Source: Escherichia coli (GTDB lineage Bacteria; Pseudomonadota; Gammaproteobacteria; Enterobacterales; Enterobacteriaceae). Taken from it: a stretch of DNA of 64,000 bases. Within the stretch, counting starts at the first letter, position 1. Each line of letters opens with the position of its first letter. The DNA lies in the NCBI RefSeq assembly GCF_003334335.1, contig NZ_QOWQ01000004.1; one strand, 5' to 3'. Under the pieces are notes generated by a model. The model searched no databases. It was not told the DNA's origin and saw nothing but the letters and a program-made list of their open reading frames with translations. Positions 29,300 to 29,530 of this stretch are shown one piece after another. Made by a program: the position numbers and the translations under genes.

Positions 29300-29440
29300 G
29301 TTCGAGTTGCAGAAAGGCGGCAAGCTCGAGAATTCCCGGGAGCTTACATCAGTAAGTGACCGGGATGAGCGAGCGAAGATAACGCATCTGCGGCGCGAAA
29401 TATGAAGGGGGAGAGCCCTTATAGACCAGGTAGTACACGT
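29300..29440. repeat. ERIC (IRU) intergenic repeat element between rpsB and tsf
   Basis: Core gaattcccgggagcttacatcagtaagtgaccgggatgagcgagc ... gcatctgcggcgcgaaatatgaaggggg matches the ERIC consensus family; boundaries approximate. Confidence 0.65.
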
Positions 29441-29446
29441 TTGGTT

Positions 29447-29473
29447 AGGGGGCCTGCATATGGCCCCCTTTTT
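29447..29473 (+). terminator. Rho-independent terminator/attenuator between rpsB and tsf
   Basis: Stem gggggcc/ggccccc with a 7-nt loop followed by TTTTT. Confidence 0.7.
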
Positions 29474-29530
29474 CACTTTTATATCTGTGCGGTTTAATGC
29501 CGGGCAGATCACATCTCCGAGGATTTTAGA

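Follow-up and report, generated by a model that had tools for sequence, protein, structure and literature searches.

The ERIC repeats, also named IRU or RU-1, were reportedly described by Sharples and Lloyd in 1990 and by Hulton and colleagues in 1991, and the copies of E. coli are said to have been catalogued by Wilson and Sharp in 2006. We presume, purely as an expectation, that a complete K-12 catalogue would include the copy analysed here, which lies between rpsB and tsf. Full-text literature searches, whose coverage lay outside the primary ERIC catalogues, returned nothing relevant that linked an ERIC with either gene. According to reviews of the work of De Gregorio et al. (2005), ERICs that adjoin stop codons in Yersinia affect, by way of RNase E, how stable the upstream mRNA is. 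The rpsB-tsf operon has its own literature. The passage of PMC2834685 that cites Aseev et al. (2008) states that the monocistronic rpsB transcript ends at an attenuator located before tsf, with about one third read-through, and the autoregulation by S2 has been reviewed (PMC10931766). Moreover, Peng et al. (2011; PMC3071730) observed a northern band of ~110 nt in S. flexneri 301, the RNA of the Rfam family CssrA. Its 3' end was a terminator prediction, the 5' end was derived from the size of the band, its flanking genes were listed as map and rpsB, and the authors assumed that the RNA had its own initiation site. Each of the three components, ERIC, rpsB-tsf attenuator and CssrA RNA, is already described, and the locus belongs to the best-studied bacterial genome.

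We analysed a stretch of E. coli DNA of 64,000 nt (the window), in which rpsB and tsf, encoding ribosomal protein S2 and elongation factor EF-Ts, are separated by a spacer of 257 nt. This spacer and its flanks are identical to those of E. coli K-12 MG1655; K-12 coordinates were converted to window coordinates by subtracting 161326. Upstream of rpsB, the leader matches the Rfam family RF00127 with 83.5 bits (gathering threshold 44), and is annotated in NC_000913 as the ncRNA tff. Near the 3' end of the spacer, 7 nt separate the Shine-Dalgarno GAGGA from the ATG of tsf, and the arms of the tsf-leader hairpin (CTGT..GG/CCGGGCAG) are conserved in the spacer alignment. A preliminary description of this DNA had assumed that the two genes are co-transcribed, which is correct: both lie on the + strand, and their co-transcription with partial termination is documented in the relevant passage of PMC2834685 and in the supplement of PMC6131387. 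In the SMRT-Cappable-seq data of the latter study (PMC6131387 Supplementary Data 2), transcripts that start at TSS 189712 end either at 190800 or at 191745. Position 190800 corresponds to 29474 in the window, the last T of the attenuator run, and there some reads stop and others read through. Note that the site occupied by the ERIC, while intergenic, is inside the transcribed region, as the reads from TSS 189712 pass through it. Transcription through the ERIC and termination at 29474 are thus established by published data. The features of the locus are collected in Table 1.

Table 1. Features of the rpsB-tsf region, in window coordinates
Feature	Position	Strand	Basis
t44/tff leader of rpsB, S2 autoregulatory 5'UTR structure	28434-28520	+	Rfam RF00127; context for operon
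rpsB, ribosomal protein S2	28548-29273	+	ORF list, translation, annotation of identical K-12 locus
Second in-frame TAA after rpsB	29274-29276	+	
5' half of short outer helix around ERIC, pairs with 29414-29417	29277-29280	+	MFE fold of spacer
Filled/empty boundary segment, 133 nt where ERIC-free alleles of E. coli have ACGCTCGTAC (10 nt)	29280-29412	+	Alignments
ERIC/IRU element, 127 bp	29287-29413	+	Palindrome arms, core pattern, consensus identity, profile HMM, RNA fold
Match to Rfam RF02798 CssrA (~110-nt S. flexneri RNA)	29359-29468	+	Rfam search
SMRT-Cappable-seq 5' end, K-12 190705, assigned to tsf-pyrH-frr transcripts	29379	+	PMC6131387 Supplementary Data 2
Small hairpin between ERIC and attenuator	29424-29446	+	RNA folds
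rpsB-tsf intrinsic attenuator, a partial terminator	29447-29474	+	Terminator scan, published 3' end
tsf-leader hairpin just 5' of the Shine-Dalgarno	~29483-29509	+	MFE and centroid folds of spacer
tsf Shine-Dalgarno GAGGA	29519-29523	+	Read from sequence; invariant in spacer alignment
tsf, elongation factor EF-Ts	29531-30382	+	ORF list, K-12 annotation, homologues

Our results show that positions 29287-29413 are a bona fide ERIC/IRU miniature inverted-repeat element. To place it in the family we assembled 13 independent copies, from other E. coli loci (yjbE-yjbF, hsdM-hsdR, mobH-ardC, ybhJ-ybhI and pgk-fbaA), from IMG/VR contigs in which they were recovered by a core-pattern search, from a second Salmonella copy and from Rheinheimera. 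These copies align over ~127 bp and their similarity falls sharply at both ends. A profile HMM built from them, which contained neither the window copy nor its orthologues, recognised positions 29291-29409 with an E-value of 3.5e-29 (96.8 bits). In support of this, the element is 77.2% identical over 127 bp to the majority consensus of the 13 copies, above the roughly 70% that the preliminary description, which had proposed a full-length ERIC in this spacer, had taken as the lower limit; the 20-nt flanks match the consensus at only 7/20 and 5/20 positions. The 44-nt core defined by the ERIC1R and ERIC2 primers (sequences from PMC6066780) is identical at 37/44 positions, and the window contains a single occurrence of the 21-nt core pattern, where 0.00 would be expected. 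As is usual for an imperfect palindrome of this family, the element has terminal arms (29287-29313 and 29387-29413), which are 27 nt each and 74% complementary, and an apical stem-loop at 29334-29365. The sense strand carries it in the orientation of the consensus (ERIC-PCR primers), and it starts 13 nt past the rpsB stop codon. By blastn, an E. coli genome has a median of 10 ERIC places (range 2-16). A weak Rfam match to 'Vibrio RNA AS5' extends across the whole element and fits the occurrence of ERICs that has been reported in Vibrionaceae (PMC10969869).

The ends of the element are atypical. The terminal 7 nt read CTCCCCC/GGGGGAG, compared to TATACTC/GAGTATA in the family consensus, and a TA target-site duplication was not visible at either end (GATA|A on the left, GGGGGAG|AGCC without TA on the right). 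The lack of this duplication may reflect secondary divergence of an old copy, and is outweighed by the sequence evidence. As regards its extent, the span of 29300-29475 given in the preliminary description was nearly right, but the ERIC begins 13 nt further to the left, at 29287, and that span merged the ERIC with the attenuator.

The element is not a fixed component of the operon. When the spacer was compared by megablast to about 5425 complete E. coli genomes, 4095 gave a full-length match and ~1330 matched only downstream of 29413. In support of this result, when the empty allele was used as query against an even sample of 60 E. coli genomes, it was uninterrupted in 15 and split by ~123 bp in the others. 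About 75% of E. coli are therefore filled and about 25% empty at this site, with spacers of 257 and 134 nt, respectively. Strains K-12, BL21, IAI1, O157:H7, O55:H7 and Shigella carry the filled allele; CFT073, Nissle 1917, IAI39, SMS-3-5 and one O145 strain carry the empty one. CFT073 and Nissle 1917 we take to belong to phylogroup B2, and IAI39 and SMS-3-5 to F; the filled allele is that of A/B1/E and Shigella and the empty allele that of B2/F. ST131 and APEC O18 are also without the rpsB-tsf ERIC, and have just 2-3 ERIC places in total. Note that in CFT073, IAI39 and SMS-3-5, all with the 134-nt allele, rpsB and tsf are at least 99.5% identical to those of K-12.

Beyond E. coli, two serovars of Salmonella enterica have the orthologous ERIC, in a spacer of 257 nt whose left flank TTGATAA is identical to that of E. 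coli. Our spacer sample comprised 18 Enterobacterales spacers. At least 6 Enterobacterales came from an EF-Ts search, whose listed matches were mostly of distant taxa, and look-ups of identical proteins supplied further genera; the sample did not extend to Citrobacter, E. albertii, E. fergusonii or S. bongori. No ERIC was present in the rpsB-tsf spacers of the 11 other species sampled, which measure 116-156 nt. The ERIC-free spacers are those of K. pneumoniae, E. roggenkampii, Kluyvera, Kosakonia, Cronobacter, Trabulsiella, Superficieibacter, Yersinia, Photorhabdus and three further Enterobacteriaceae. Thus, the spacer is not invariant among relatives, being filled or empty within E. coli and ERIC-free in 11 species; the preliminary description had regarded an invariant spacer as incompatible with a mobile repeat. 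This comparison demonstrates that the ERIC is dispensable.

What the ERIC replaced can be read from the empty alleles. From Photorhabdus through the empty allele of E. coli, the tandem stop codons are followed by a hairpin, TAAGGC-(a)GCTC-loop-GAGC-CCTTA, which is kept in all 11 ERIC-free species examined. In the fold of the filled spacer, the short outer helix 29277-29280/29414-29417 is a remnant of this ancestral hairpin, as judged from the fold of the empty allele. In the filled allele, 10 nt of this hairpin (ACGCTCGTAC) have given way to the 133 nt of 29280-29412. Since the outer pairs still close around the ERIC, the element occupies the apex of a pre-existing stem-loop. A simple insertion was rejected as the origin of the E. 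coli polymorphism: the empty allele differs by 10 nt from the filled allele minus its ERIC, other genera also have the empty form, and Salmonella has the filled form with identical flanks. A simple deletion does not account for the polymorphism either, given that the filled form occurs with the same flanks in Salmonella and the empty form elsewhere. Since neither event fits, some short-patch allelic replacement is implied by the alignments, which could have run in either direction.

The second structure of the spacer is the attenuator. Its stem (29447-29454/29462-29469) has 8 bp, 7 of them G-C, with a loop of 7 nt and a TTTTT run at 29470-29474; the hairpin has a folding energy of -18.1 kcal/mol, and hairpin plus T run lie 57 nt before the ATG of tsf. 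The preliminary description had noticed this strong hairpin and T run, and had them follow the ERIC immediately. It is indeed the known attenuator, with a published 3' end, but it does not adjoin the ERIC: a gap of 33 nt (29414-29446), containing a small hairpin, separates them. The small hairpin is common to 11/14 ERIC-free spacers; in the other three, those of K. pneumoniae, E. roggenkampii and Superficieibacter, a different and shorter sequence takes its place. By comparison, the attenuator hairpin, GGGG(G)CC...GG(C)CCCC followed by the T run, was found in 18/18 Enterobacterales spacers, a range that extends from E. coli to Yersinia and Photorhabdus. The attenuator is therefore independent of the ERIC and, since it is found in ERIC-free genera, it probably predates the ERIC insertion.

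Next, we folded the transcript. The ERIC RNA alone reaches -65.2 kcal/mol (z = -8.5), compared to -50.3 kcal/mol for the antisense strand, and the fold of the whole spacer (z = -6.9) holds the same ERIC structure. RNAalifold, applied to 12 ERIC copies, returned a consensus hairpin of 36 pairs, 19 of which show compensatory changes. Partition-function calculations gave the same pair probabilities for the terminator stem in the filled and in the empty allele (mean 0.97, minimum 0.78), and these did not change when 12, 15 or 20 nt past the stop codon were masked to mimic a terminating ribosome. With a mask of 12-15 nt the ERIC hairpin still forms, minus 0-2 terminal pairs. Folding thus predicts that the ERIC is structurally insulated from the attenuator at equilibrium, in calculations that ignore co-transcriptional kinetics.

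The differences between the E. coli and the Salmonella copies also bear on the hairpin. A double change turns one A-U pair into G-C, the two terminal arms have matching 1-nt deletions, three G-C pairs become G.U and another five changes are confined to loops; no pair is broken. Such pairing-preserving differences argue for maintenance of the hairpin, and selection on the RNA structure, as opposed to neutral evolution, may lie behind them. This argument is not conclusive, as symmetry at the DNA level can also preserve palindromic repeats. The two copies are 89% identical, compared to 84% identity at the third codon positions of rpsB plus tsf, which hints at some constraint on the element.

The 3' part of the spacer coincides with CssrA. 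The Rfam model is covered in full by the match at 29359-29468, with 136.2 bits (gathering threshold 93) and an E-value of 1.2e-28, and this span consists of the right arm of the ERIC, the small hairpin and the stem of the attenuator. The 5' end that SMRT-Cappable-seq lists at K-12 190705 (29379) falls inside the ERIC right arm, and from there to 29474 there are 96 nt. Another 'TSS' of the same list (PMC6131387 supplement), at 190794, is within the terminator stem. A consensus scan of 28150-30600 found no σ70-like pair of -35 and -10 sites; on visual inspection, GAGCGA or TGAGCG stands at the -10 region that precedes 29379. It is doubtful that CssrA is an independent gene. Most simply, the ~110-nt RNA would arise by decay or processing, with the terminator hairpins protecting it. 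For annotation, this implies caution, as the 'sRNA' that Rfam calls CssrA is half an ERIC plus an operon attenuator.

Taking these results together, we propose that the ERIC is probably an old and dispensable MITE in the rpsB 3'UTR and intercistronic region, that the attenuator sets the ratio between the two transcripts, and that any effect of the ERIC is limited to decay or processing. The element is transcribed from the rpsB promoter within two mRNAs: a monocistronic rpsB mRNA, which carries the ERIC and has its 3' end at the attenuator, at 29474, and a bicistronic rpsB-tsf mRNA, which has the ERIC in its intercistronic region. The ERIC is predicted to fold autonomously into its long and very stable hairpin, and the S2:EF-Ts transcript ratio would be set by the intrinsic attenuator at 29447-29474. 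At most, the ERIC would alter the decay or processing of the rpsB 3'UTR, and the RNA of ~100-110 nt seen as CssrA would be no dedicated regulator but a stable 3' piece, in which the ERIC right arm is joined to the terminator hairpins. A modest effect of this kind on mRNA decay or processing is possible; the Yersinia ERICs offer a precedent, and the ~110-nt RNA spans the right arm and the attenuator.

The preliminary description had gone further, suggesting that the ERIC modulates the S2:EF-Ts expression ratio through mRNA structure or processing. We found no support for such modulation, and three results speak against the ERIC being required: the attenuator is there in 18/18 spacers, the ERIC is missing from ~25% of E. 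coli and from 11 species, and the terminator stem has a pair probability of 0.97 in both alleles. Folding of the transcript, in particular, revealed no effect of the ERIC on the attenuator. Since the attenuator is present in ERIC-free genera and is predicted to form equally without the ERIC, the S2:EF-Ts ratio is not to be credited to this element.

Other explanations of what the ERIC does were weighed against this proposal. The one that survives best, which we still consider unlikely, is modelled on Yersinia: ribosomes terminating on rpsB would partly melt the base of the ERIC and lay bare an RNase E site, and after cleavage there the rpsB and tsf halves of the mRNA would decay independently, tuning S2:EF-Ts post-transcriptionally. 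The precedent itself, with the orientation dependence that reviews attribute to De Gregorio et al. (2005), is consistent with it, as are the short distance, just 13 nt, between the ERIC and the rpsB stop codon, the short RNA spanning the right arm and the attenuator, and the conserved pairing of the element in E. coli and Salmonella. However, ~25% of E. coli and 11 species do without the ERIC while rpsB and tsf are near-identical across the E. coli alleles, and the hairpin survives a ribosome mask of 12-15 nt, losing 0-2 terminal pairs.

We give a smaller chance to a second idea, that the ERIC hairpin came to stand where the post-stop hairpin had been, was kept with compensatory changes in Salmonella and in E. 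coli A/B1/E, and there shapes the decay of the rpsB 3'UTR and yields a stable CssrA. If this were true, E. coli phylogroups would differ measurably in their S2:EF-Ts set-points, or would have a phylogroup-specific sRNA. Just as improbable is a weak promoter in the right half of the ERIC, from which starts near 29379 would produce either the CssrA RNA of ~96-110 nt or tsf-pyrH-frr mRNAs, adding tsf transcription that does not depend on S2. The TSS listed at K-12 190705 for a tsf-pyrH-frr variant, the 96 nt from there to 29474, which come near to the northern band of ~110 nt, and the initiation site assumed in PMC3071730 all favour such a start. But the consensus scan of 28150-30600 lacks any σ70-like site and the -10 region (GAGCGA or TGAGCG) is as described above, the 'TSS' at 190794, in the terminator stem, suggests that some of the listed ends are noise or processed, and the strains without the ERIC do without this start.

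A further possibility, an antiterminator switch, is very improbable. Here the ERIC arms CUCCCCC/GGGGGAG would, once the base of the ERIC is opened, pair with the halves of the attenuator and couple translation of rpsB to read-through into tsf. Two observations had made it attractive: the terminal arms depart from TATACTC/GAGTATA and resemble AGGGGGCC/GGCCCCCU, and bicistronic mRNA is known to become scarcer when translation and transcription are no longer coupled (PMC10931766). Against it, the stem probability (mean 0.97, minimum 0.78) was the same with or without the ERIC and with 12, 15 or 20 nt masked, the local hairpin, with a loop of only 7 nt, should win kinetically, and the attenuator is in every ERIC-free spacer examined. 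The pairing of ERIC arms with the attenuator was rejected on the identical stem probabilities in all folds. Finally, a coincidental resemblance to ERIC, in what would be a locus-specific structured spacer, has a negligible probability, since the missing clean TA duplication and the atypical terminal arms, which would fit it, are set against an independent profile score (E = 3.5e-29), 77% identity over the full 127 bp with a sharp drop at both ends and a family that is multicopy in each genome; chance resemblance is ruled out by the consensus identity and the profile score.

The proposal of an old, dispensable MITE next to an autonomous attenuator can be examined in nature, as the filled and empty alleles of E. 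coli, with near-identical flanking genes, provide a ready test of the effect of an ERIC in an essential operon.

How does this locus compare to the systems already described? As in the Yersinia cases summarised in reviews, the rpsB-tsf ERIC is co-transcribed and next to a stop codon, which is the setting proposed there for a ribosome-unmasked RNase E site in the 3' arm. Unlike those cases, a strong terminator follows the rpsB-tsf ERIC, and a role of that kind could be assigned here by analogy only. The Rfam CssrA model (RF02798) differs from its source paper, as it maps to the rpsB-tsf spacer and not to map/rpsB. The attenuator, by contrast, is the same element as that of An et al. (1981) and Aseev et al. 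(2008), without difference, as these are cited in PMC2834685. Compared to the ERIC/IRU/RU-1 family, the window copy is unlike in its atypical termini, in having no TA duplication and in standing in place of 10 nt, where a clean insertion would have removed nothing. It is alike in its 127 bp, in its imperfect palindrome with terminal inverted arms and in its conserved central core, and it shares with the family the multicopy nature, the intergenic but transcribed location and the presence/absence polymorphism at the level of strains. Moreover, the ERICs of pgk-fbaA, yjbE-yjbF and hsdM-hsdR also sit between genes of the same direction, just as the rpsB-tsf copy does.

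The number of ERIC places (sites located by blastn) per genome differed from strain to strain among the sampled E. coli chromosomes. Nine of the ten chromosomes that do not carry the ERIC copy between rpsB and tsf had only two to four places each, including ST131 with two and APEC O18 with three. The tenth, O145 RM11626, is also empty at rpsB-tsf and had eight, while the remaining sampled chromosomes, among them K-12, O157 and their relatives, had between 8 and 14.

A second palindromic repeat is present in the pyrH-frr spacer, both in the window and in K-12. When the spacers were compared with that of K-12, this repeat was missing in CFT073 and in Salmonella, and the spacer measured 291 nt in K-12 versus 149 nt in CFT073 and 146 nt in Salmonella. 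The repeat, with a folding energy of -61.8 kcal/mol (z = -4.6), occurs at a median of five places per E. coli genome (six in the K-12 strains) and occupies the pyrH-frr locus in about two thirds of the genomes. Both the ERIC profile, an HMM built from 13 other ERIC copies (E=0.006), and the Rfam family sX9 matched it weakly; it may be the 'RSA' repeat. Strain-variable repeats are thus found in two consecutive spacers of the transcription unit rpsB-tsf-pyrH-frr.

The attenuator downstream of the ERIC site also differed in one strain. E. coli Es_ST80_L1_NDM_10_2017 carries a divergent empty allele, a spacer without ERIC, with 92.7% identity downstream. Its small hairpin, which precedes the attenuator, has a 2-nt deletion, and its terminator combines a shortened stem with a T run grown to 9 T. 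This allele shows that the attenuator itself is variable in some lineages.

ERIC copies were also found at other loci and in other organisms (see table). The ST131 copy lies between pgk and fbaA, which are co-directional, highly expressed glycolytic genes, so the location of an ERIC within an operon-like arrangement is not unusual. In Salmonella Enteritidis, the divergent promoter region shared by map and rpsB holds an additional, more diverged copy that precedes the rpsB leader; the map-rpsB intergenic region of E. coli K-12 contains no ERIC. The ERIC-like element of Rheinheimera sp. A13L is 63% identical to the window copy and lies about 5.4 kb upstream of tsf. Since this organism is a non-enteric gammaproteobacterium, the family reaches beyond the Enterobacterales and Vibrionaceae. 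Finally, the copy in an IMG/VR 'viral' contig is identical to the E. coli rpsB-tsf ERIC over 126 of 127 bp. If flanked by rpsB and tsf, this contig is probably misclassified chromosomal DNA, or lies at the border of a predicted prophage.

Repeats and RNA family matches, each in the numbering of its own sequence
Feature	Sequence	Position	Strand	Location	nhmmer E
Additional ERIC copy	L084, Salmonella Enteritidis	164-291	minus	map-rpsB intergenic region	4e-10
ERIC-like hairpin element, 127 bp	L030, Rheinheimera sp. A13L	4501-4627			1e-7
ERIC copy	L107, E. coli ST131	1193-1318		pgk-fbaA spacer	
ERIC copy	L100, IMGVR_UViG_2690316066_000016	12516-12641			
Palindromic repeat, ~145 bp	window	31305-31449		pyrH-frr spacer	
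t44/tff RNA	window	28434-28520		map-rpsB interval	
CssrA model	window	29359-29468		rpsB-tsf spacer	
V_AS5 alignment	window	29286-29409		ERIC element	

Two known RNA families bear on this region. The neighbours of CssrA are given as map/rpsB in Table 1 of the defining paper (PMC3071730), but the Rfam model, built from the coordinates of that same paper, maps to the rpsB-tsf spacer, and the map-rpsB interval is actually occupied by the t44/tff RNA. This mismatch looks like a labelling inconsistency, either in the literature or in Rfam. RF02818 (V_AS5, 'Vibrio RNA AS5') aligned with the ERIC element from one end to the other, with a score of 24.6 bits that is below threshold. This suggests that V_AS5 is not a unique antisense RNA but itself an ERIC-type repeat of Vibrio.
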